Shown here: piece by piece, positions 3,335-21,410 of the stretch
Numbering within the stretch: the first letter of the stretch is position 1
How the letters are laid out: every line of letters starts with the position of its first letter
The notes under the pieces: generated by a model
What the model was told of the DNA's origin: nothing
What the model saw: only the letters and a program-made list of their open reading frames with translations
Database searches by the model: none
Assembly (NCBI GenBank): GCA_037137775.1
Contig: JBAXJQ010000005.1
Coordinates: 1-53,963 of the forward strand
Direction: 5' to 3'
DNA: 53,963 nt
From: Candidatus Falkowbacteria bacterium
GTDB taxonomy: Bacteria; Patescibacteriota; Patescibacteriia; Patescibacteriales; GWE2-39-37
Translations under genes and position numbers: made by a program

Positions 3335-4569
3335 TTAATTAATAACCATAAACCCAAAAGCACCATTACAATTCCACTTATTAACGGCGTCCAACGAGTT
3401 ACCCGGGAGCTAATAGCAGTCAATCGTTGTGTATAAAGCATAACGAAAAATATCACTAACTGATCTAAGATATAGCAAAAAACATACAGAAGCAAGTAAC
3501 CATAATATCCAACTTTTGGTAAATTAGCCGCTGTTAATATGGGAACGTACACTGCCGGCAAGCCAGCACTACATAGTAATTCAACCAAATTAATCGCCGC
3601 GGCTAATAAAAATACACCGATAAAGGCAAGTATCAACGAATTGTTTTGTGCTAAAGCTTTCAAGCGAAATATAATTGCCTTTCGTTTTTCACTTTCTACT
3701 ATTTCACACCCACCATTTCTTTCCTGCCACCATTGTCTTAAGCTATAACCTCCGGCCAAAATGGCAAATAAAACAATGCCAACTTTCAACCATTTTAACA
3801 TGCCGATCAATAAGTAAATATTTAACCAAGCAGTTAAAAACAAGAAGTATGTAATGGCAGATGCGGCAATAAAGCCTCCACCTAGCCAAATGACTCGTTT
3901 TTTATCTTGCTTGGTCATTAGCAGGCTAAGTAAAAACAACAGCACCCACAAAGCGCATGGATTCAAACTATCTAACAAGCCAATTATAATGGTTAATACT
4001 GGCAAAGAGAATTGACTCAACTCCAATTGACCCCACCAAGTTGTAATTTTCTTTGTCCCATCGATTGTTTTGCCCGTGCTTGAGGTTGTTGCGTTTGCCA
4101 TTTGATTATTCGAATCCACCGCTTTAACGGGTCGGTCGTTGGCTTGATTGGTGGCAAGCATTAATGGTGAAACGGCATCTACATAGTTATTACTACGAGC
4201 ATCATTTATTATGGCAATAATTTGTTGACCAGTAGTTAGCGCATCGTCAAAGCCAACCAATGGCTGGTTTTGTATTATGGTTAGTGGCACACCGCCTTGT
4301 TGCACATTAAGCGAGCCGGCGACTCGTGACATTAATTTAGCGTTTTCTTGGTTTTGCCAAACTTCAAATTTTTTAACACGAATTGAAATGTCTGACTTTG
4401 CTAGATAATCAAGAAAAGGAATTTCCTTGGCACAATGCGGACAACCTTCGCCATAAAACAAATACACATTGACTGGCTTGGTTGGTGCCGCCATAGTTAC
4501 TGTTGGCACCAAAACGCCCACTAGCAACAATGAAATAACAAAAAAATTACCGATAATTTTTTTAAACAT
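3322..4569 (-). CDS. Exported glutaredoxin/thioredoxin (CPHC) fused to a CcdA/DsbD-like membrane domain
   Basis: Signal peptide, FYGEGCPHC, GVP cis-Pro, then LDSLNPC and ELLC-S-AGLP membrane cysteines and about 6 TM helices. Confidence 0.8.
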   Translation of the reverse strand: MFKKIIGNFFVISLLLVGVLVPTVTMAAPTKPVNVYLFYGEGCPHCAKEIPFLDYLAKSDISIRVKKFEVWQNQENAKLMSRVAGSLNVQQGGVPLTIIQNQPLVGFDDALTTGQQIIAIINDARSNNYVDAVSPLMLATNQANDRPVKAVDSNNQMANATTSSTGKTIDGTKKITTWWGQLELSQFSLPVLTIIIGLLDSLNPCALWVLLFLLSLLMTKQDKKRVIWLGGGFIAASAITYFLFLTAWLNIYLLIGMLKWLKVGIVLFAILAGGYSLRQWWQERNGGCEIVESEKRKAIIFRLKALAQNNSLILAFIGVFLLAAAINLVELLCSAGLPAVYVPILTAANLPKVGYYGYLLLYVFCYILDQLVIFFVMLYTQRLTAISSRVTRWTPLISGIVMVLLGLWLLIKWFT

Positions 4570-4606
4570 AGAATGAATGTATCACAAATTTTCTTTTTTT
4601 ACCACT

Positions 4607-4975
4607 TCACCAAACATCTTTAAAGTGTTGAATTTTTGCCTGTTGCTTGGTTTTATTTACATCGATTGCGATCACATCTAATCTGAAATGAGAAATAAGT
4701 TTCTTTTGCCGTCTCATATATTCCTGAACTCCCTGCTTTAAACTTTTATTTTTTGTAAAATTTATCATCTCTGAAGCACTACCGTAAACCGTTGAGGTTC
4801 TGGTTTTTACTTCAATAAAAACCAGACAATCATTTTGCTTCATTACCAAATCTAGTTCCCAATAACTAGTTTTAACATTTCTCTCAACCAATACATATTT
4901 TCTCCGCATTAAAAAATCAAGCGCCAGGTCTTCACCCCATTTGCCAACTAGCTGATTATGCTTTACTGCTAACAT
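4607..4975 (-). CDS. yraN: YraN/UPF0102 family PD-(D/E)XK nuclease-like protein
   Basis: GKWGEDLA, ERN, ELDLV, FIEVKTR, RLDVIAI; ATG at 4975 preferred to TTG at 4981. Confidence 0.88.
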   Translation of the reverse strand: MLAVKHNQLVGKWGEDLALDFLMRRKYVLVERNVKTSYWELDLVMKQNDCLVFIEVKTRTSTVYGSASEMINFTKNKSLKQGVQEYMRRQKKLISHFRLDVIAIDVNKTKQQAKIQHFKDVW

Positions 4976-5424: not shown

Positions 5425-5982
5425 TTATATCTTAGTAAATAGTAGGCCATAATGATAATGTCCGGCCTCAAACTCATCCTCAAGCACTAATCCTAGTTTT
5501 TTTGCAGCGGTTAGTAGCAACTCCTTTCGAACACGTTCTTCAAGTGGCGGCCCGAGCGGTGAGCTGACATTTTTCCACTCAACCACCAACATATACCCAT
5601 CTTTTTTTATCAATCTAATTGCTTCTCTTAATATTTGCGGCCGATGCTGTGACTGATACAACACATTAATCAACAAAGCTACGTCTACGCTTCCTGACTC
5701 AATTTTTGTCGCATTATACACCTCCAAATTACTCCAAATAGTTTCTATGTTGGTAAAATTTTCTTGACGAGCTACTCGTGAAATTCGCTCGAGCACTGTT
5801 TTTAAAATATCAACCGCATAAACCTTGCCCTTTTTACCAATCATCGAAGCGACAGGAAACACAAACAATCCAGAAGCGCCACATCCAAGATTTGCTACCT
5901 TCATTCGCTCAGTAATTCTTGCCTTGCTAATGATTAAATTTGTATCCAAAAGAACACTATTTGCCAATCCTGGTATTATCAT
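5425..5982 (-). CDS. Class I SAM-dependent methyltransferase
   Basis: VANLGCGASG motif I, VYAVDI, SVDVALL, GYMLVVEW. Confidence 0.85.
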   Translation of the reverse strand: MIIPGLANSVLLDTNLIISKARITERMKVANLGCGASGLFVFPVASMIGKKGKVYAVDILKTVLERISRVARQENFTNIETIWSNLEVYNATKIESGSVDVALLINVLYQSQHRPQILREAIRLIKKDGYMLVVEWKNVSSPLGPPLEERVRKELLLTAAKKLGLVLEDEFEAGHYHYGLLFTKI

Positions 5983-13090: not shown

Positions 13091-14227
13091 ATGAAATTTT
13101 CTAGCTTAGAAGAACATTTAAAAAACGGGTTATTCATCGTTGGGCACGGCACAGGAAAAAACCAAAATCTTCCTATTTTAGGCAATGTGCTAATCAGCTG
13201 TCAAAGGGGTGAAATAAAATTATCTGCCACAAATCTTGAAATTGGTATTAGTTGTATAGTTCGGGGTAAAGTTGATGTTGAAGGTAGTTTTACGGTTGAT
13301 GCTAAAATTCTAAACGACTACATAACCTTGTTGCCCAACGAGAAAGTTGATATTGAAGTGTTGAATCAAAATTTGGTTATTAGTTGTGCTAACTATCAAA
13401 CCAAGATTAGGGGGTTGCAGGCAGATGATTTTCCGGTTATTCCTCAACTTGAACGGGTTGATGCAATTAAAATAGACGCTCAGGAATTGCGCAGGAGTTT
13501 AAATCAAGTTGTGTTTGCAGTAGCGGGTAGTGAAACAAGGATGGAGCTGTCTGGTGTTTTATTACGAGTAGTTGATCAAACTTTGGTTTTAGTGGCGACA
13601 GATAGTTATCGTTTAGCAGAAAAGAAAATATTATTAGGTATGGCAGATATTGAAAATAGCGCCCTAGATATAAGCGCCATAGTTCCCGCTAAAACAATTC
13701 AAGAGCTGGTTAGAATTTTGGGTGGTATTAAAGATGAGCTTGATGGTGGTGCCAAACAAGTTGAAATCTATCTCTCAGACAATCAGGTAATGTTTGTATA
13801 TGATAGTGTTGAGTTAGTTTCACGGCTAATTGAGGGGCAATATCCAGACTACCAACAAATAATTCCTCAAAATCCAAAAACCAGAGCAGAGGTAGAGGTT
13901 GAACAATTTAGCCGCGCGGTAAAGGCCGCTGCACTCTTTACGAAGGCGGGTATAAATGATGTTAATCTAGATATACCGCGGAGTAAAAATGAACTTGTTA
14001 TTTCGGCCACTTCCGGTCAAACTGGCGAGAATATAACTAAAATATCGGCTGTTACAGAAGGAGAAGATAATTTTGTAGTAGTGAATTATAGATTTTTACT
14101 AGATGGCATTAATACGATCGCAGTTGATTCTGTGGTTTTAGAGGTGGTGGATGGCAACACGCCTTGCGTTTTAAAACCAAAAAATCAAGAGAACTATTTA
14201 TATGTAATTATGCCAATCAAACAATAA
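13091..14227 (+). CDS. dnaN: DNA polymerase III beta clamp
   Basis: LPILGNVL, ATNLE, LVATDSYRL, SRLIEGQYPDY, YVIMPI; GGGAGG RBS at 13073. Confidence 0.98.
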   Translation: MKFSSLEEHLKNGLFIVGHGTGKNQNLPILGNVLISCQRGEIKLSATNLEIGISCIVRGKVDVEGSFTVDAKILNDYITLLPNEKVDIEVLNQNLVISCANYQTKIRGLQADDFPVIPQLERVDAIKIDAQELRRSLNQVVFAVAGSETRMELSGVLLRVVDQTLVLVATDSYRLAEKKILLGMADIENSALDISAIVPAKTIQELVRILGGIKDELDGGAKQVEIYLSDNQVMFVYDSVELVSRLIEGQYPDYQQIIPQNPKTRAEVEVEQFSRAVKAAALFTKAGINDVNLDIPRSKNELVISATSGQTGENITKISAVTEGEDNFVVVNYRFLLDGINTIAVDSVVLEVVDGNTPCVLKPKNQENYLYVIMPIKQ

Positions 14228-14236
14228 TTAATTATT

Positions 14237-14282
14237 GTAAAACAAAAAACTGCCACAATGTTGTGGCAGTTTTTTGTTTTAC
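14237..14282. terminator. Bidirectional terminator, 22-bp perfect arms
   Basis: GTAAAACAAAAAACTGCCACAA-TG-TTGTGGCAGTTTTTTGTTTTAC. Confidence 0.85.
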
Positions 14283-17107
14283 TTAATTGTTAGGGTTAAG
14301 GGTGGAGCTAAAAATTCTTCTTTACCCCAGGTATATGCCGTTGCATTTAATTGATAAACGCCTTTATTTATTGGCTTTATCCAATTATAGGATGGTGAGG
14401 CACCTGGTAATTGAAGCGTGGTTATATCTGTTGTTTTATTGTTAATTGTATAACTTAGGGTAAGTTTGGTTACCCGCTCTGGTGAGGTGATTGAAAGCTG
14501 AAGGTTGATTGGGGTGGATGAATTAGTTGATGAACTGTTGGACAATGGTAACCAAGTGATGGTAGGGCTTAGGATTGTTGCCGAGTTACTGTTGTTAAAA
14601 TTTATTGTTTGTGTACTGCAATTGTCAACGTCATCACAGGCGGTGACGGATAATTGATGAAAGCCAGAGTCTAGAAATGAAATATCTTTTTCCATTCCAA
14701 AGGGGTACGTCGTCACCTCACCAATAAAGACAGAATCAATGGTAAAAGAAATTCTAGCCACACCTCTAGGGGCGGTAAGAGCACTTAATTTAATTCGTAG
14801 TTGGTTATCCGTTATCGTTTGATTTGCATATGGTTCCTCAATAGTAAAAACGGGACGGTTTTCTACTTTATGTACATTATCTTTTTCTGTGGGCGGGGTT
14901 CCCGTGGCAATAAGTTTGTGTTTTTGTGCCCAGGCTCGTACAGGCGTTTCCCAGAGGTTAAATTGAGGGTCTAGTGCTGGATTAGCAGGATAAGGTCCGC
15001 GTGGGTCAGTTTTATCAATATAGTACAGAATGTTGTGTGGTTGACTGAAGTTTTTTTCAACAATATAGCTTGGTGGTGTGTCTTCTGTGGCGAGTAGACC
15101 GGAGGCTTTGTCAATTTTTATAATACTACTACTAGCAATATTACCATCGAGCACTGGTTTGCCGGTTTTGTTGTTCTCTGGGGCAATAAAGCTTTCTTTT
15201 GGTGTATTCTTTAAGACTTTTTCCATGTAGTCGTGCCAAATTGGTGCAGCCACTACACTACCATCAGCACCGCGCTTCATCGAAGTATTATCGTTATTTC
15301 CCACCCATACTCCGGTGACTATTGAAGGAGTGTAACCAACCGTCCAAGCATCTTTATAATCATTCGTAGTCCCAGTTTTTGCCGCTACTGGGCGATCGCT
15401 TAATATTAAGTTATTGCGCAAACCAAAGATATAGGCCCGTGCATTATTGTCTGATAAAACACTAGTAACCTGACGGGCAATTTGTGGCTCAAAAACTTTG
15501 GTTTTTTGTTCTTGGTATTCTTCTAAAACTTTTCCAGACTGGTCCTCAACGCGCAGTACAGGGGAAATTTGATGAACATAGCCGTCTTGGGCAAAAGCAC
15601 TATAGGCATTAGCGTGCTCTAGTAACTGAATCTCACCTCCACCTAACACCAATGAAAGGCCGTATTGATCAGGGTTTCTTAGGGTGGAATAACCCATGGT
15701 TTGCGCCAGGGTAATAACGTTTTTAATGCCGACTAAATAAATTGTTTTAACGGCGGGAATATTTAATGAACCGGCTAAAGCCTTGCGCATGCTAACTGGA
15801 CCGTGTTCAGTGTTGTCATAATTATGGGGCTCGTATTTAGTGCTCGGGTCGGTGGAGAAATTAGTAACCACGTCGTATAAAATAGTGTTAGGGGTATAGC
15901 CCTTAATAAAGGCGGCAGCATAGACAATTGGTTTAAAAGAAGAGCCTGGTTGTCGGGGACTGGTGGTGATATTTACCTGCCCATCTATCTTATTACTGAA
16001 ATAGTCTTTAGAGCCCACCATGGCCAGAATTTGGCCAGTTTTTGGGTCTATGGAAACAAGAGCCGCGTTAGTTGCGTTGTATTTAGTTTCGTTTTGTGGC
16101 TCTCGGGCGGAAATAACCTCTTCGGCTGCTTTTTGTTTGTCTAAATCAATCGAAGAAATGATTTTTAATCCGCCTTGTTCAATAGTTTTCTCGCCGTATT
16201 TATCAGATAAATATTCTTTTAAGTACATTACAAAGTGAGGTGCGAGAATATTTTCTTTGGGCTTGGAAAAGATCACCTCTGTTTTTTTTGCCTTGTCGGC
16301 CTCATCTTGTGAAATATAGCCTTGCTTTGCCATTTGATCGAGGATGTATTTTTGTCGGCCAAGTAATAATTCTCGGTTTGGTCCGAAAGGAGAATAACGG
16401 CTAGGTGCCTGAGGAATAGCTGCTAAAATAGCAGCCTCGGGCAGAGAAACATCGCGGACACTTTTGCCAAAAAATCGTTGACTGGCTGATTCAACACCAT
16501 AGGCGGTTGAACCATATGGAATTTCATTTAAATAAAGCTGGAGAATTTCATCTTTGGTGAATTTTTTTTCTAACTGATAGGCTAAAATCAATTCCTTTGC
16601 CTTGCGAATGTAAGATTTTTCATTGGTTAAGATCGCATTTTTTACAAATTGTTGAGTAAGGGTTGAACCACCCGCACTTTTTCCTAAAAAAACATTAGTA
16701 ACTATAGTGCGTAAAATAGCCCAAACACTAAATCCGCCGTGATTATAAAATTTTTTATCCTCTATTGCTATGGTGGCGTTGCGAACATTTTTGGGAATAT
16801 CGTTTAAATTAATGAGCGTGCGTTTTTCCTCGCCATAAATTTCATACAAAACCGTTTTACCGGTACGGTCGAAGATGCGCGTACTTTGAGCGACTTGGCG
16901 ATCAATTAGTTTATTGGGATCTGGTAGGCCACGAGAAAGGTAAAAAATACCAATAACAATTAAAATTAAGCTAATGGCACAGATAATAAGGAAATTTTTA
17001 AAACTAAAAATACGTCGCCAGAGTGGTTTTTTTAATTTTTTATTATGACGCGGTTCTTGCCAGTTTTGGCTAGCCTCAGACTTAATTTGTAAAGATGGTA
17101 TGGGCAT
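14279..17107 (-). CDS. Class A penicillin-binding protein (PBP1A family) with C-terminal Ig-like domains
   Basis: EDKKFYNHGG, GGSTLTQQ, RKAKE, YLNEI; transpeptidase SSFK, SLN, KTGT. Confidence 0.95.
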   Translation of the reverse strand: MPIPSLQIKSEASQNWQEPRHNKKLKKPLWRRIFSFKNFLIICAISLILIVIGIFYLSRGLPDPNKLIDRQVAQSTRIFDRTGKTVLYEIYGEEKRTLINLNDIPKNVRNATIAIEDKKFYNHGGFSVWAILRTIVTNVFLGKSAGGSTLTQQFVKNAILTNEKSYIRKAKELILAYQLEKKFTKDEILQLYLNEIPYGSTAYGVESASQRFFGKSVRDVSLPEAAILAAIPQAPSRYSPFGPNRELLLGRQKYILDQMAKQGYISQDEADKAKKTEVIFSKPKENILAPHFVMYLKEYLSDKYGEKTIEQGGLKIISSIDLDKQKAAEEVISAREPQNETKYNATNAALVSIDPKTGQILAMVGSKDYFSNKIDGQVNITTSPRQPGSSFKPIVYAAAFIKGYTPNTILYDVVTNFSTDPSTKYEPHNYDNTEHGPVSMRKALAGSLNIPAVKTIYLVGIKNVITLAQTMGYSTLRNPDQYGLSLVLGGGEIQLLEHANAYSAFAQDGYVHQISPVLRVEDQSGKVLEEYQEQKTKVFEPQIARQVTSVLSDNNARAYIFGLRNNLILSDRPVAAKTGTTNDYKDAWTVGYTPSIVTGVWVGNNDNTSMKRGADGSVVAAPIWHDYMEKVLKNTPKESFIAPENNKTGKPVLDGNIASSSIIKIDKASGLLATEDTPPSYIVEKNFSQPHNILYYIDKTDPRGPYPANPALDPQFNLWETPVRAWAQKHKLIATGTPPTEKDNVHKVENRPVFTIEEPYANQTITDNQLRIKLSALTAPRGVARISFTIDSVFIGEVTTYPFGMEKDISFLDSGFHQLSVTACDDVDNCSTQTINFNNSNSATILSPTITWLPLSNSSSTNSSTPINLQLSITSPERVTKLTLSYTINNKTTDITTLQLPGASPSYNWIKPINKGVYQLNATAYTWGKEEFLAPPLTLTIK

Positions 17108-17111
17108 ATCA

Positions 17112-17205
17112 TGTGGATAAGTTGTTTATATACTAATTATGGTATTTTTATTCAGTTATGTAAAATAGCCGACTATATAGTAGGTAAGTTTAGATAAGTA
17201 GTCAA
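17112..17205 (-). promoter_or_regulatory. PBP promoter with a perfect DnaA box next to the start codon
   Basis: TTGACT(17205)-17-TACTAT(17182); TGTGGATAA at 17112-17120. Confidence 0.6.
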
Positions 17206-17230
17206 GAGTTTATTGGCTGTGTTTAAACAA

Positions 17231-17254
17231 TACTACACCAAAATTGGTGTAGTA
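17231..17254 (-). terminator. Hairpin, probable terminator upstream of the PBP promoter
   Basis: TACTACACCAA-AA-TTGGTGTAGTA, followed by TTGTTT on the minus strand. Confidence 0.55.
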
Positions 17255-17438
17255 GTATGGTTTTAATAGTTTTGGGTATTTACAGATATTTCGCCCAATG
17301 TATCTGTGTATCTGAAGTTTTTGTCCGCTTCCTTATTATATATCAATAAAGAGTAAAGAAGCAAAAATTTGGGTGGAATGAAAAGTAATTCAACAAATAA
17401 TTTCCTTATTATGAGCCATTTTTGATTTTTTAATGCGC

Positions 17439-17507
17439 TTGACAATCATTGTGTATGGTAGTATAAATATAAGTCATTAAGACGTAGTACATTCAACAAT
17501 TCGGAGG
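17439..17507 (+). promoter_or_regulatory. Sigma70 promoter and strong RBS of the small ORF
   Basis: TTGACA(17439)-17-TATAAA(17462); GGAGG at 17503-17507. Confidence 0.7.
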
Positions 17508-17514
17508 TTACCAA

Positions 17515-17709
17515 ATGAAGAAAATTCTCATATTGTTGGCAGTAATAACTTTTACAGCCATCGTGGGTGGCATACTGGACATCTGTATAATTGGCGACGC
17601 ACTTTCCTCGCTACCCCAGTGGAAAAGAGTTGCCAATATTTTAGTACATGACTGCTTAGGTTTCATTGTCGGAGGAACGATGATGGTTCTCTACAAACCT
17701 TGGACTTGA
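17515..17709 (+). CDS. Small two-TM hypothetical protein (64 aa)
   Basis: Own promoter, RBS and terminator; MKK followed by two hydrophobic helices. Confidence 0.75.
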   Translation: MKKILILLAVITFTAIVGGILDICIIGDALSSLPQWKRVANILVHDCLGFIVGGTMMVLYKPWT

Positions 17710-17743
17710 TAATCACACAACCGTACTATTATGTATAAAACTT

Positions 17744-17773
17744 GCCGGCGTCATTTCGATGACCGGCTTTTTT
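17744..17773 (+). terminator. Intrinsic terminator
   Basis: GCCG(GC)GTCAT-TTCG-ATGACCGGC-TTTTTT. Confidence 0.8.
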
Positions 17774-17949
17774 CTTGCCCAAAAAAATCAAAAACAACAT
17801 TCTGAATTGTAAAGATTATTTGTTGAATTCCTTTTCATGAAACCAGATACACAGTGTTGGACGATGTGCCACCCCCTAATTTCTTTATGGCATTTCGTCC
17901 AACTCGTTATTATACGAAAAATAAATATTTTTCAAAAAATTAATTGCAG

Positions 17950-18879
17950 TTATTTTCGGTAAAAGGTGGCGGCTTGTTCCGGTGGTACGGAATTAATAAT
18001 TATGCCTGAGTCGATTTCCACACCAGCCCAAACAGAATCTCTGGGTTGTAATTTAAGGCAAAAATGTTGTTCATGGTGTGATGCCACGTGATGGGTGTGA
18101 AAGTTGTATGGCAGATTAAGGATGTGAAGTTTAACCAAGGCTCGTTTTAAAGCATAGGCGAGAGATTTTTTTTCGGCCTGATTCAAATCGGCTAATCCGT
18201 TTGCGTGGCGTTTGGTATAAAACCAGAGTTCATAGTGGTATTCACTGGCATATGGAGTAAAGGCTAGAATGTGTTTATCCTCATAAACCTTGCGTTTGCT
18301 TTTTTGTTCTTGTTCGAGTATGGCACAATATGGACATTTGTGATGCTCGGCACGATAGTTTTGCACAGCAGTTAACTCGGCCAGTACTTTAGGAGAAAGT
18401 AGCTCGCTTGCAAATAATTGTGAGTGACTGTGCTGGAGTGATGCGCCGGCGGGTGCACCACTGTTTTTAAAGACTAAAATAAAATCAATTTTTGGATTTT
18501 GGCTGGCCACTATCATGCGTTTGCAATAAACTGATAATATTTGTTCAAATTTTGATAATGAAAACTGGTGCATTTCCAGACAATGATTTGGCGTTTCCAC
18601 AATCACTTCTTGCGTGCCATAGGCTTTTGGATTGGTTAGTGACAGTGCAGAGTATTTATTTTTTAATATCATTGCATCCCATTTTTGACGAGACCCAACG
18701 TGGTCTAAAATTAAATTTGGTTCTATGCCGTCTGGGCAAAGTCCGCAAGGTCTGTTGGTGTGAGTGATTTGATCATCGTCAATATCACGCGGTCGAATGG
18801 CGCGGCGGGGTGTGATAATAACGTATTTTGGTAAAAAATAATCTTTACGAATTTCTGAAGCTTGTTTTTTTAATATCAT
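17950..18879 (-). CDS. galT: Galactose-1-phosphate uridylyltransferase family protein
   Basis: EIRKD, RAIRP, CGLCP, EVIVETP-H, GASLQHSHSQ (HxHxQ), AGVE-SG-IN-V-PE. Confidence 0.85.
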   Translation of the reverse strand: MILKKQASEIRKDYFLPKYVIITPRRAIRPRDIDDDQITHTNRPCGLCPDGIEPNLILDHVGSRQKWDAMILKNKYSALSLTNPKAYGTQEVIVETPNHCLEMHQFSLSKFEQILSVYCKRMIVASQNPKIDFILVFKNSGAPAGASLQHSHSQLFASELLSPKVLAELTAVQNYRAEHHKCPYCAILEQEQKSKRKVYEDKHILAFTPYASEYHYELWFYTKRHANGLADLNQAEKKSLAYALKRALVKLHILNLPYNFHTHHVASHHEQHFCLKLQPRDSVWAGVEIDSGIIINSVPPEQAATFYRK

Positions 18880-18924
18880 AAAAATAATGTAAGCCTTTTT
18901 AGTATACCATAATTAGCTTGAGAT

Positions 18925-18955
18925 AAAAAAAGAGCCGGCCTTATGGCCGGCTCTT
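18925..18955 (-). terminator. Intrinsic terminator of the dsbA-like gene
   Basis: AAGAGCCGGCC-ATAA-GGCCGGCTC-TTTTTTT on the minus strand. Confidence 0.85.
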
Positions 18956-18968
18956 AGTAACAGAGTGA

Positions 18969-19721
18969 TTATTTCAACGCAGCTTTGATTAATTTCTCAA
19001 TCTCACTAAATGGTACAGCGCCTGGAATGGCTTGGCCATTTACAAAGCTACCTGGTGTGCCCTGAACACCTAAGCTTTGACCGTAGGACATATCCTCATC
19101 AACCTTTTTGGTAAACTTACCAGAGTCTAAGCAGGATTTAAACTTGGCTTCATTCAAGCCAACGTCTTTTCCGGCTGAAACAATGTACTCATCATTTAAC
19201 TTGTCCTGATTTGCATAAATTGCGTCAGAGTATTCCCAAAATTTATTTTGTTCACCAGCACATTCGGCAGCCTCAGCAGCTTTCCGTGCATACGGGTGGA
19301 TACTATCTAGTGGGAAGTGCTTAAATATCCATCGCACATCTTTTGGATATTTTTGCATCACTTCTTTCATGGTGTCATGAAAGCGGCTGCAAAAAGGGCA
19401 TTGGTAATCAGAGAATTCAACAATCGTAACCTTGGCATTTTTATTACCTCGAACGTGGTCACTGTTGGCAATTTTAATGCTTACTGGTTTGCCAGCAGCG
19501 GCATTGCCCGCATCATTGCCAGCAGCCGGGTTATTTTTTGTCGGCGCAGTGTTGTCGACTGCTGCTACTGTGTCAGAATTATCACCAGAGGATGTGCCCA
19601 TCTGTTGTTTGAGGTACATGCCCAAAAAGACAACAAAGCCAATAAGGGCAACAACGGCTAAGCCGCTTGTAAAACCGAGCCAGAAGCTGGTCTTTGAACG
19701 AATCATTGTTTTCGTTTCCAT
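18969..19721 (-). CDS. Membrane-anchored DsbA/BdbD-type thiol-disulfide oxidoreductase
   Basis: N-terminal TM, EFSDYQCPFC, HFPL, AAEAAECA-EQ-KFW, GVQGTP. Confidence 0.92.
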   Translation of the reverse strand: METKTMIRSKTSFWLGFTSGLAVVALIGFVVFLGMYLKQQMGTSSGDNSDTVAAVDNTAPTKNNPAAGNDAGNAAAGKPVSIKIANSDHVRGNKNAKVTIVEFSDYQCPFCSRFHDTMKEVMQKYPKDVRWIFKHFPLDSIHPYARKAAEAAECAGEQNKFWEYSDAIYANQDKLNDEYIVSAGKDVGLNEAKFKSCLDSGKFTKKVDEDMSYGQSLGVQGTPGSFVNGQAIPGAVPFSEIEKLIKAALK

Positions 19722-19745
19722 AGTTCGGAATAAATAATTAATAAG

Positions 19746-20090
19746 TTATCCATGATAATGAGGTTTGTGAACACATTTTTCACAATACTCTATCCAAGGC
19801 TCGCGTCGCAAATCTTCTGGCTTGATTTCGGCACCACATTCAATGCAACGTCCATAAGTACCGTCATTAATGCGGCCAATTGCATCTTCGATGCGGCCCA
19901 ATATTTCTCGATGTACTTTGAGGAGTGATTCCTCGATTAAATCTTCAGTGGCATCGTTTGCCAAATCTTCATGGCTAGGATTGTCCACAGCCTCTTCTGG
20001 CTTGGTCAAGCGGGTGATTTCATTTTGCACCTCTACTCTTTCCGCCTCTAGGCGTTCGGCCATCTCCCGTAAAAAGGGCTCTTGGTTCAT
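19746..20090 (-). CDS. TraR/DksA C4 zinc-finger protein
   Basis: Coiled coil, RI-DGTYG-CIECG-EI...P...CEKC. Confidence 0.88.
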   Translation of the reverse strand: MNQEPFLREMAERLEAERVEVQNEITRLTKPEEAVDNPSHEDLANDATEDLIEESLLKVHREILGRIEDAIGRINDGTYGRCIECGAEIKPEDLRREPWIEYCEKCVHKPHYHG

Positions 20091-20159
20091 GGTCGTGGGT
20101 TAATTTTAAAAGTGGTTACATCTTAACATATCTTTTCAGAAAAACAAATAGCGGTAGCG

Positions 20160-21410
20160 CTAAGGTTGGCACACCTTAGCTAGACATGTCAAGGGGATAT
20201 AACAATACGGATAATAACCTGGTTTTTCACAACAAGGTCCGGTTTGGAATCCACAGTCTGCCTTTTTGGTAAAAACTTGAGTAATAATAAAATAATCTTT
20301 AACCTGGGCGACGCCAACCCCAGATTGATTGTATTCTGCATTCAGCATGTTGCGTCTGTGTCCCGGGCTGTTAAGCCAGCCAACAACCGCTTTTTGCTCG
20401 ACGTCTTCTATTTGGTTGTAGGTGATTTGCCATAGCGTTATTGAAGGCGACTGCTTAGTTTTATTTTTGCGCAAAATAATTTCTTCTTGTAACGAGGCTA
20501 GCTTTTTTTGATCTGTTTTTGCCTCATCGATTCGTGCTTCGTAACTAGTATTTAATATGTTAAGCTCGCTCTGGCAATCAATTTTAGGGACATTGTCAGC
20601 CTCATACGCCGCCTCTTTAATTGATGGCACCAGTGCAATATTTTCAGCGCTTGCGGAAAAGTTAAATATTTTTTGACTATTTAATCGATTGTTGTGATAA
20701 AGACCAAAAACTTGTCCCTCGTGGTGAATAAAGGGATAGCTACAAAGCTTAGTTTGTATAATAATGCTTTGGTTTTCATTGGCTTGGTCTTGACTATGTA
20801 GTCGAGCGGTCTCTGCTAGCTCATCATTCCATGTCAGCTTACCAAAGCCGAACTTAACCCGCTCGATATTCACCTTATCATGTATTTGTTTAGCCATGAG
20901 GGTAAGTAGTGGGGAAGATGTGCTTTTTTGCGTTAACGAAGGATTACTAGTGGGCGTTGACGTGATAAAACCAATCGGTATTTTAGCCAAATTTTTATTG
21001 CTTATTGGCAAACCAATTTTTCGATAGAGCTTTACCGCCTCTCCTCCGGAATGAAAAGAGTATTCAATTAGAGATTGATTGTAAAAGTAATATGTGTTGG
21101 GTTTATTGGAAATAATCACAAACCTGCCAGCGAGTTGTCGTTTATTTTTTGAATCAAGTATTTTATTTAATTGTTCTGAAGATTTTTTCCAACCAACTTG
21201 GCTAATCACTTGAAGGGTGTCGGGTAAGTTGCTTAAAAAATACCGTTTTTGGTCGGTTGGGTTAATATACCAAGCCTGCCCCTTGCCCTCTACTTGTATT
21301 AATATGCGACCGCGTAAACGCTCGGCCAAGGTTTCTGCTCGCAAAATAGTTGGCGGGCAGAATATGGAAAAACTTAATAGGAGAAATAATAGATATTTTA
21401 CTTGACGCAT
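20160..21410 (-). CDS. Secreted CAP/SCP-domain protein with Cys-rich tail
   Basis: Signal peptide, LRGRILIQVE-GQAWYINP domain, ARLHSQD, AENIA, WLNSPGHRRN, six-Cys C-terminus; ATG at 21410 preferred. Confidence 0.82.
   Translation of the reverse strand: MRQVKYLLFLLLSFSIFCPPTILRAETLAERLRGRILIQVEGKGQAWYINPTDQKRYFLSNLPDTLQVISQVGWKKSSEQLNKILDSKNKRQLAGRFVIISNKPNTYYFYNQSLIEYSFHSGGEAVKLYRKIGLPISNKNLAKIPIGFITSTPTSNPSLTQKSTSSPLLTLMAKQIHDKVNIERVKFGFGKLTWNDELAETARLHSQDQANENQSIIIQTKLCSYPFIHHEGQVFGLYHNNRLNSQKIFNFSASAENIALVPSIKEAAYEADNVPKIDCQSELNILNTSYEARIDEAKTDQKKLASLQEEIILRKNKTKQSPSITLWQITYNQIEDVEQKAVVGWLNSPGHRRNMLNAEYNQSGVGVAQVKDYFIITQVFTKKADCGFQTGPCCEKPGYYPYCYIPLTCLAKVCQP

Follow-up and report, generated by a model that had tools for sequence, protein, structure and literature searches.

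Genes and signals of the galT-PBP spacer

The window analysed here is the whole 53,963-nt stretch of Candidatus Falkowbacteria contig JBAXJQ010000005.1 (assembly GCA_037137775.1), and its own assembly was searched with it (the source genome, G000; 1.21 Mb, 41 contigs, 96.7% complete), in which the window is contig C5. An 842-nt spacer separates a PBP1-type gene from a galT-like gene and contains all of the parts that an earlier, sequence-only reading had listed: a small gene with its expression signals, enclosed by inverted repeats. Positions 17300-17903 of this spacer are probably a single gene cassette of an integron-like system of the Candidate Phyla Radiation (CPR)/Patescibacteria, docked at a minimal attI-like site that lies after the galT-like stop codon and ahead of the old terminator of that gene. 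The landmarks on either side are as follows.

14279-17107, minus strand: PBP1-type gene with Transgly and Transpeptidase domains.
17231-17254, minus strand: 10-bp hairpin that probably once served the galT-like gene as its terminator (terminator-like site; RNA fold -14.3 kcal/mol, z -4.4).
17950-18879, minus strand: galT-like gene, with its stop at 17950.

The galT-like stop codon now lies about 696 nt from the hairpin at 17231-17254, and the open reading frame (ORF) list together with the terminator fold bears out the proposed position of the unit between the two. The cargo of the unit comprises four features.

17439-17467, plus strand: sigma-70-type promoter, TTGACA-17 nt-TATAAA (TTGACA at 17439-17444, TATAAA at 17462-17467), read from the sequence.
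17503-17507, plus strand: GGAGG ribosome-binding site, 7 nt ahead of the ATG at 17515.
17515-17709, plus strand: ORF for a small hydrophobic protein of 64 amino acids (aa), taken from the ORF list; it faces the docking site, opposite to the array direction.
17744-17773, plus strand: intrinsic terminator with a TTCG loop and a T-run (RNA fold -16.1 kcal/mol).

The complete expression unit that had been described (promoter, GGAGG, 64-aa ORF and TTCG terminator) was thus found, each part at its expected position. The promoter is not listed by our consensus scanner because the scanner requires T as the final base of the -10 element. Hydropathy analysis of the 64-aa protein shows a strong hydrophobic segment at about residues 4-27 and a weaker one at about residues 44-60, so that the two transmembrane segments claimed for it are plausible. 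No Pfam family was found for the protein, a search of 5.8 billion proteins returned only the protein itself, and the ESM Atlas gave no match at ≥0.9 and no family; the cargo appears to be a small membrane-type protein and an orphan. An array promoter could not serve the gene, which faces the docking site, and its own promoter, ribosome-binding site and terminator are consistent with this.

Inverted repeats and single-stranded folding

The gene is enclosed by four inverted blocks in mirror order. A repeat search recovers the 24-nt (96%), 13/13 and 11/11 blocks, and the outer 7/8 block (17291-17298 and 17857-17864) is read from the sequence, as the sequence-only reading had described them. Between the second and third blocks the left arm holds 63 nt and the right arm 5 nt, which confirms the roughly 58 extra bp that had been ascribed to the left arm. 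The longest inverted repeat with at most one mismatch in the 842-nt spacer is 24 nt, compared with a maximum of 17 nt in dinucleotide shuffles; it is longer than in 200/200 shuffles, and the proviso that such matches might be common in shuffled sequence falls away. Folding of the 626 nt from 17285 to 17910 as single-stranded DNA gives -84.3 kcal/mol for the minus strand (shuffle mean -55.6, z -6.6) and -85.3 kcal/mol for the plus strand (shuffle mean -58.5, z -7.5), with 0/20 shuffles equally good for either strand. A long-range stem is seen in both predicted folds, in support of the earlier suggestion of an element that folds into a long single-stranded stem.

Strong folds on both strands, a small hydrophobic protein and an ORF convergent with galT would also fit an element acting at the RNA level, in which read-through from galT yields a hairpin RNA with the ORF antisense in its loop, such as a type I toxin-antitoxin-like or processing module. 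However, both arms lie outside the transcription unit of the ORF, the left upstream of the -35 hexamer and the right past the terminator, and no Rfam family comes near its threshold: a search of 16900-18100 at a permissive threshold returned nine weak matches, the best at 22.5 bits against a gathering score of 70 and the best E value being 0.72. The three other cargos found in the same frame (see below) are not hydrophobic mini-proteins, one being a DUF4177 protein, and homology of the arms to array sites accounts for the repeats. We regard an RNA-level element as improbable.

Boxes and boundaries of the cassette

Integrons are the textbook gene-capture device. Their attC sites carry the core consensus RYYYAAC/GTTRRRY, and a compact attC of about 60-140 nt lies 3′ of a promoterless gene that points away from attI. 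The corresponding parts of the window are listed below; an arrow (↓) marks a predicted crossover point or junction, and L190, L172 and L201 are metagenome loci described in the next section.

17300-17903, minus strand (the array direction): cassette of 604 nt, with the predicted crossover points AAY↓ and AAC↓ (plus-strand reading) as its limits.
17288-17299, minus strand: distal R′-type box ATTGGGCGAAAT, compared with the R′ boxes of other arrays and, for L172 and L201, with their left boundaries.
17304-17314, minus strand: L′ box CAGATACACAG, 4 nt ahead of the distal R′ box.
17315-17377, no strand assigned: conserved side branch (the extra 58 bp of the earlier reading), ending in the motif ATTTGGGTGGA at 17366-17376.
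17378-17401, no strand assigned: left copy of the 24-nt stem block, pairing with 17815-17838 at 23/24 positions (96%).
17419-17431, no strand assigned: left copy of the 13-nt stem block, 13/13 with 17782-17794; innermost conserved part of the frame, where frame similarity stops.
17782-17794, no strand assigned: right copy of the 13-nt stem block, where frame similarity restarts.
17815-17838, no strand assigned: right copy of the 24-nt stem block, kept in L190, L172 and L201.
17844-17854, minus strand: L″ box CTGTGTATCTG, 1 nt past R″, 11/11 complementary to 17304-17314 and paired in both DNA folds.
17856-17903, minus strand: 48-nt hairpin made of R′ with its extension (17903-17888), a 16-nt loop and R″ with its extension (17871-17856); DNA fold -13.8 kcal/mol, z -6.0.
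17904-17919, minus strand: attI-like box 1, 16 nt, TCGTTATTATACGAAA on the plus strand, abutting the cassette; the exact pattern occurs only at C4:1173, C5:17904 and C21:615.

Read along the minus strand, the order is docking box 1, G↓TTGGACGAAATGCCA (R′ with its extension), the 16-nt loop, TGGCACATCGTCCAAC (R″ with its extension), 1 nt, the 11-nt L″ box, 529 nt, the 11-nt L′ box, 4 nt and the distal R′ box. The palindrome of an attC site is present in the form GTCCAAC, 1 nt, 11-nt L″ ... 11-nt L′, 4 nt, ATTGGGC, with a deviant distal core, and the outer blocks of the repeat appear to be attC-type R and L boxes whose stem the inner blocks extend. The spacers of the L boxes are asymmetric, 1 versus 4 nt; by eye, the first attC site on C2 has the same asymmetry, the second has 3/6 and cassette C of that contig 2/5. 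The compactness of an attC site is lacking: R″ to R′ spans about 570 nt and encloses the gene, which faces the docking box and is equipped with a promoter and a terminator of its own.

The 5′ R′ box of the cassette is complementary to its own R″ box, and a circularised unit would therefore carry one continuous stem. Because a related genome (G033, locus L045) has a small gene between R′ and R″ straight after the docking box, we take the 48-nt hairpin to be the usual gene position of ordinary cassettes in this system, here apparently left empty. The gene of the window would sit inside the site, between L″ and L′, and not between R′ and R″. The distal R′ box at 17288-17299 may be the right half of the docking site in a displaced position.

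The motif ATTTGGG(T/C)(G/C)GA occurs on a single strand in every site of the family, across lineages, which suggests a putative binding site for the recombinase or an accessory factor. Copies lie at 17366-17376 of the window, at C2:94001-94013, C2:94372-94384 and C4:30-42, and in L172, L190 and L201.

The same frame around unrelated genes

A pattern derived from the 24-nt block was scanned over metagenome contigs and gave mostly chance single matches; among the 80 metagenome loci fetched, three full frames and one partial frame are genuine. In the full frames (L190, L172 and L201) the arms are 84-94% identical to those of the window over 116-151 nt and the cores show no similarity. The products of these cores are a DUF4177 protein of 50 aa and two orphans of 142 and 65 aa, which differ from one another and from that of the window, and each core has a TTGACA-type promoter, a GGAGG-type ribosome-binding site and a terminator in the window's orientation. 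The TTGACA hexamer falls in the same alignment column in 4/4 frames. In alignments A3 and A4 similarity starts right past AAY, stops after the 13-nt block except for the -35 hexamer, and restarts at the opposite 13-nt block to break off precisely at GTCCAAC↓, beyond which comes the docking box in the window and the next array site in L190, L172 and L201.

The L201 frame is also present in a complete genome, CP011209.1 (Candidatus Wolfebacteria; L126), where it belongs to an array of at least five units and lies about 1.5 kb upstream of a recombinase that is 62% identical to the G000 recombinase P0001 and has a three-box docking site (see below). The frame is thereby common to two CPR lineages, that of the Falkowbacteria window and that of the Wolfebacteria record. 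The sequence-only reading had named the same arms around different small ORFs as the observation that would support it, and this is what the three loci provide; the exchangeable cassette that it had considered is supported by arms of identical type around unrelated ORFs elsewhere. The 24-nt block has no other copy in the 1.2 Mb of G000, and when the right arm was searched as DNA against 301 genomes of the order, 16 showed short matches; of these, G050 has half an arm only, with no partner.

The CP011209.1 array also contains three near-identical gene-less units of 175-190 nt (L126 positions 3740-3905, 4514-4688 and 5709-5884) that alternate with gene-bearing cassettes, the last of them abutting the docking site. 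In L190 a 347-aa ORF at 66-1109, resembling by eye an IS4-type transposase, ends where the left R″ box is expected; it would be an insertion sequence (IS) inserted into the array.

The recurrence of the frame bears on two other proposals. Inverted repeats that flank a promoter-bearing module, in a genome with three tyrosine recombinases and one serine recombinase, could form an invertible segment, the recombinase flipping promoter and gene together between the arms as a phase switch. Everything from promoter to terminator lies inside, however, so flipping would change little, and 4/4 independent frames carry the cargo in one and the same direction with respect to the asymmetric arms, the side branch being on the promoter side. 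This constancy argues against the invertible cassette of the sequence-only reading, which we judge very unlikely.

The second proposal, a carrier of the transposon type or resembling a miniature inverted-repeat transposable element (MITE), would have its terminal repeats served by a transposase in trans. The repeats are indeed long and terminal with no enzyme inside, the frame recurs in other genomes, and the IS4-like transposase ORF abuts the left arm of L190. Yet there is no target-site duplication at 17299/17300 and 17903/17904, the ends are recombination cores (AAY↓ ... AAC↓) of the R type that are shared with the arrays, and the unit abuts an attI-like box. The 24-nt block is present as a single copy in the 1.2-Mb genome, no Y1 HUH transposase was found there, and the arms are homologous to ORF-less array sites. 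The unit carries a complete gene, while a MITE has no cargo gene and occurs in many near-identical copies. The earlier suggestion of a MITE-like gene carrier does not hold up against these observations and has, in our judgement, very little probability.

Docking sites and recombinase

The full docking site is a 65-nt sequence of three palindromic boxes that occurs on C21, C4, C3 and C24. A blastn search of array stretches against G000 ties together six loci (C2:93800-96663, C4:1-1232, C3:8159-10760, C24:19035-22090, C21:1-670 and the window). Each full docking site has cassette-like units on the same side and is always joined to the array as ...AAC↓TCGTT...; the junction of the window, TTTCGTATAATAACGA↓GTTGGACGAAATGC, is identical in this respect and aligns with five other junctions (alignment A1, 6 junctions). 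An empty site at this position would read ...CCCAA(Y) joined straight to the TCGTTATTATACG box.

On C21 the gene for P0001, a 272-aa tyrosine recombinase with a PF00589 match, is preceded at 50-115 nt by the three-box site, and the contig ends 600 nt beyond; the array belonging to this recombinase is not visible, owing to the contig end. The integron arrangement of a docking site beside an integrase gene with divergent cassettes is seen in the C21 site, in the L126 array of at least five units and in the upstream junctions of homologues. P0001 scores 219 bits on NF040815 ("tyrosine recombinase/integron integrase"; cut-off 220) and 203 bits on the IntI model TIGR02249 (cut-off 265), where it covers model positions 1-178 and 237-312 only. 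Positions 179-236, the extra domain that the IntI clade has between the catalytic patches, are skipped, about 57 VchIntIA residues being matched by about 15 in the query. P0001 aligns end to end with XerA-type enzymes, its best structural-sequence match being archaeal XerA (PDB 4a8e); the enzyme is IntI-like by sequence yet without the IntI insert.

G000 has three PF00589 matches, on C21, C1 and C30, and none on contig C5, the window. The gene on C1 is XerC/D-like (215 bits on Xer models, 98 bits on the IntI model), that on C30 is a third tyrosine recombinase, and one serine recombinase is also present; a Y1 HUH enzyme was not found in the 96.7%-complete genome. This search had been proposed by the sequence-only reading, whose statement that the unit has no recombinase is borne out: the ORF list for 14000-21000 of the window contains none, and a tyrosine recombinase that has a matching docking site is encoded at another place in the genome. 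The window thus presents an attC-bearing unit with no integrase gene nearby, the situation described for single attC sites or clusters of attC sites lacking an integron integrase (SALIN/CALIN). A Xer/dif system, with one site per replicon and a housekeeping Xer, does not describe G000, which has four full and one partial copies of the site and a separate XerC/D-like gene.

P0001 has 291 confirmed relatives among species genomes, and the locus counts that follow rest on the best 80 of these, which are 57-71% identical and come mostly from CPR metagenome-assembled genomes. The exact junction AACTYGTT lies at most 260 nt upstream in 45 of the 80 loci, with near variants in many others; in 32/80 a contig end falls less than 1 kb upstream. 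Short GTT...AAC hairpins number 48 in the 80 loci, whereas five shuffles gave 0-6. The 204 kb upstream of the recombinase hold 35 of the 48 and the remaining 461 kb hold 13; the count includes overlapping calls and some of another conserved hairpin. Short R′/R″ hairpins abut the docking site, 108-117 nt before the start of the recombinase gene, in at least 11 of the 80 loci. In the closest relative (L047; G005:C1:369690-372719, at about 1500-1850) the recombinase gene after a three-box site retains N- and C-terminal pieces only and is apparently a pseudogene.

Other cassettes of the genome and its relatives

A search of G000 matched the right end of the unit to contig C2, where copies of the 48-nt hairpin with compensatory changes are found at C2:93912-93959 and C2:94300-94346, and a 34-nt variant at C2:95736-95769. 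Between these hairpins lie sites in which an RYYYAAC-type core and a box of 9-12 nt are separated by about 45-50 nt from the complementary box and a GTTRRRY-type core; these sites of attC design separate orphan ORFs and continue to the contig end. Sites of this ordinary length fold with L stems of 9-12 bp. When R′ is compared with the reverse complement of R″ in eight cassettes, own pairs agree at a mean of 15.0/22 positions and non-own pairs at 10.3. The extensions of the R boxes are specific to each cassette, and a 2-nt mismatch is retained in most of the eight; as exceptions, C2-A pairs over 9-11 nt only and C3-1 needs a 2-nt shift. The agreement of R′ with its own R″ is the pattern expected of units that would circularise and cross over at G↓TT.

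A second G000 cassette has its gene between L″ and L′ (C2:93953-94306, 76-aa ORF). The left arm of the window is homologous to ORF-less sites of ordinary length in other CPR arrays, L134 (83% over 90 nt), L070 (85% over 68 nt), L141 (80% over 70 nt) and L114 (74% over 102 nt). Their fixed order runs from R″ and L″ through a side branch to the motif TTTGGGTGGA, then on to a short sub-hairpin, "gaac", L′ and R′, and the window has the same order. The sub-hairpin between the motif and "gaac"-L′ measures 10 bp in L134 and L141 and 6-8 bp in L070, and it is exactly this place that the 24-nt and 13-nt blocks of the window occupy, with the gene enclosed.

Generic searches were less informative. A rule-based attC scan of the genome gave six matches compared with 0-6 in shuffles and missed the window's own site, and it is of no use as a count; a relaxed scan for long-span sites over the 80 recombinase loci gave 152 matches longer than 300 nt compared with 41-50 in shuffles, mostly AT-rich, from which nothing was concluded. 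The strict pattern of an empty R′/R″ hairpin matched three times in 316 genomes of the order, all in G000 and none in the other 315; the pattern was too narrow, the exact box extension being specific to a lineage. A structural alignment of five ordinary sites yielded three consensus pairs only, and the two subfamilies align poorly.

Several further features of the arrays were noted. A hairpin with a conserved loop (AGAGGGGTTAGGGGTGAAT and close variants) and variable stems occurs at C2:94501-94535 and at about 170-200 on C4, and also in L076, L086, L087, L098, L108, L116, L118, L123 and L134; in C2, C4 and L126 it lies just past the stop codon of cassette ORFs in the ordinary R′-R″ position. 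It may act as a terminator, as a binding site for a protein or as an RNA motif. In the unrelated bin L098 (about 5840-5900) and at C4:1104-1166 the cassette adjacent to the docking site has nearly the same 5′ flank, and this flank also frames a different ORF at C2:94418-95769. Contigs break in or beside arrays at C2:96541-96663, C4:1-80 and C21:1-600, and the arrays of G000 are therefore longer than assembled. At C3:8159-10760 the docking site and a decayed attC-like site enclose two genes, one resembling glucosamine-6-phosphate isomerase and the other uridine kinase, and ordinary metabolic genes may thus be cassette-borne in this genome.

Insertion of the unit

Six of the seven loci read in related genera have galT followed by the PBP gene. 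In five of these six the spacer measures 141, 143, 143, 137 and 119 nt, compared with 842 nt in the window, and consists of the stop codon, a hairpin 15-20 nt past it, a promoter-like stretch and the start codon; the 119-143-nt spacers support the claim of an inserted module. In the sixth (L026, genome G004) a 456-nt spacer holds several GC-rich palindromes and a different insert, and the galT-PBP spot has therefore been hit more than once. The nearest genomes are only 62-64% identical in galT, too distant for an empty allele to give the borders of the insertion with single-base precision.

Contigs of four runs were compared with the locus. A contig from a second lake sample (X2) that covers 17307-18500 carries the unit with small indels, and other contigs of X2 and of X3 match the right arm only. 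One contig from a pond metagenome (X4) joins the arms without the 366-nt core at 17424-17789 (depth 9.5, 44 nt on the shorter side, 88% likeness) and is a lead only.

Interpretation

Taken together, the architecture, the boundaries, the association of docking site with recombinase and the insertion point to recombination of an integron type, which we infer rather than observe. In the mechanism that these features suggest, the arms would pair in single-stranded DNA, and the L boxes, the 24-nt blocks and the 13-nt blocks would form a long imperfect stem that brings the R and L boxes together as an attC-like substrate. P0001 would then exchange strands with a double-stranded attI-like site at AA↓C, which reads G↓TT on the opposite strand, and replication would resolve the product. 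The extra stem blocks would let the site fold across a loop of 350 nt.

A number of observations weigh against reading the unit as such a cassette. No recombination event has been observed; among the contigs of the four runs none bridges the whole locus, and none shows an empty site, a circle junction or a joint that removes the whole unit, contigs by themselves being uninformative either way on excision. The nearest genomes belong to other genera, with the galT identity of 62-64% given above. The docking site at the window has one of three boxes, boxes 2 and 3 being absent, and the 16-nt box is missing from the galT-PBP spacers read in the relatives. The distal R′ core has A where other R′ boxes have the crossover G (AAT, not AAC), the L boxes lie 529 nt apart, far past ordinary attC lengths, and the 64-aa ORF, having no homologue, may be no functional gene. 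P0001 lacks the IntI-specific insert, its residues 184-199 facing residues 187-244 of VchIntIA (2a3v); this insert, the I2 helix, is held to have given integron integrases single-strand recombination (PMC7790495).

Some of these points would be expected of a dead relic, that is, a true cassette of the system that is now fixed and immobile, with decaying repeats. The distal core reads AAT, docking box 1 alone is present, and the unit recurs with few indels in the second lake sample. Decay is not seen in the L boxes (11/11), the 24-nt block (23/24) or the 13-nt block (13/13), which are intact, as are the expression signals and the ORF. With its AAT core the window copy may no longer be excisable, and this core together with the missing boxes 2 and 3 suggests that the copy may be fixed; a fully dead relic has an appreciable chance but seems to us unlikely. 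A docked cassette of an integron-like system remains the reading that we prefer.

What the present analysis adds is a cassette type that is self-expressed and reverse-oriented, with its gene inside the hairpin of the site. Gene-less units are common, and those of CP011209.1, the ORF-less sites L134, L141, L114 and L070 and the arm-to-arm joint in X4 allow a more speculative proposal of "site first, gene second": a complete gene, from promoter to terminator, would be loaded into the terminal loop of a gene-less folded site, and this would be the genesis of a cassette, in a Xer-like system without the I2 helix that is ancestral or parallel to integrons. We consider this doubtful; if it were true, the long-standing question of cassette origin would become directly testable.

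Comparison with known systems

The sequence-only reading could not match the element to a named family. The unit can be assigned to a kind, that of an integron-type cassette with attC-like boxes at an attI-like site, although the features that define IntI integrons are present only in part. Closest to it are integrons such as the sedentary VCR arrays of Vibrio, including reverse-oriented cassettes that bear a promoter. Shared with these are a recombinase gene beside the docking site, divergent arrays, inverse cores, paired R and L boxes with an asymmetric spacer, sites that are alike within a lineage, cargo that is unrelated and mostly orphan, and a crossover placed at G↓TT by the boundaries. 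In integrons it is the folded bottom strand that recombines with this crossover; the start and end of frame similarity at the AAY↓ and AAC↓ cores in four contexts would be indirect evidence of the same here. The system described here differs in having a recombinase without the IntI insert, R boxes of 12-20 nt with a conserved 2-nt mismatch, a docking site of three palindromic boxes at several loci, and a gene inside the hairpin (R″-R′ span of about 570 nt) with its own promoter. To our knowledge, a gene inside the folded site, with its own promoter and terminator and with the same frame across distant CPR lineages around swapped cargo, is not described for integrons, and our literature searches found no description of such a CPR system and none with Parcubacteria.

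Should the mechanism hold, a wider range of enzymes would be able to run integron-type systems, ultra-small bacteria would have a route of gene exchange, and pairs of gene-less and loaded frames would be natural before-and-after material on the birth of a cassette. Complete integrons are reported to be absent from very small genomes (PMC4889954); the 1.2-Mb CPR genome studied here has several docking sites and cassette arrays, apparently served by a recombinase without the I2 helix.

Insertions of the SALIN/CALIN and attG kinds (PMC4889954; bioRxiv 10.1101/2022.09.11.507474) have in common with the window a single cassette at an ordinary intergenic spot, between housekeeping genes and far from the recombinase. 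The unit in the window differs from these accounts in that it abuts a 16-nt copy of the docking core and not an unrelated genomic site, and its presumed enzyme is not IntI.

A precedent for the enzymology is given by Xer recombinases acting on phage DNA, where one strand pair is exchanged between the folded single strand and a site in double-stranded form (PMC3442271). Elements of the CTX-phi type, which exploit Xer, resemble the proposed system in that a Xer-type enzyme lacking the I2 helix joins a folded single strand to a dif-like site that is double-stranded. They are phages served by a housekeeping Xer at a single chromosomal dif site, whereas the system in G000 comprises cassette arrays, several docking sites and what appears to be a dedicated recombinase.

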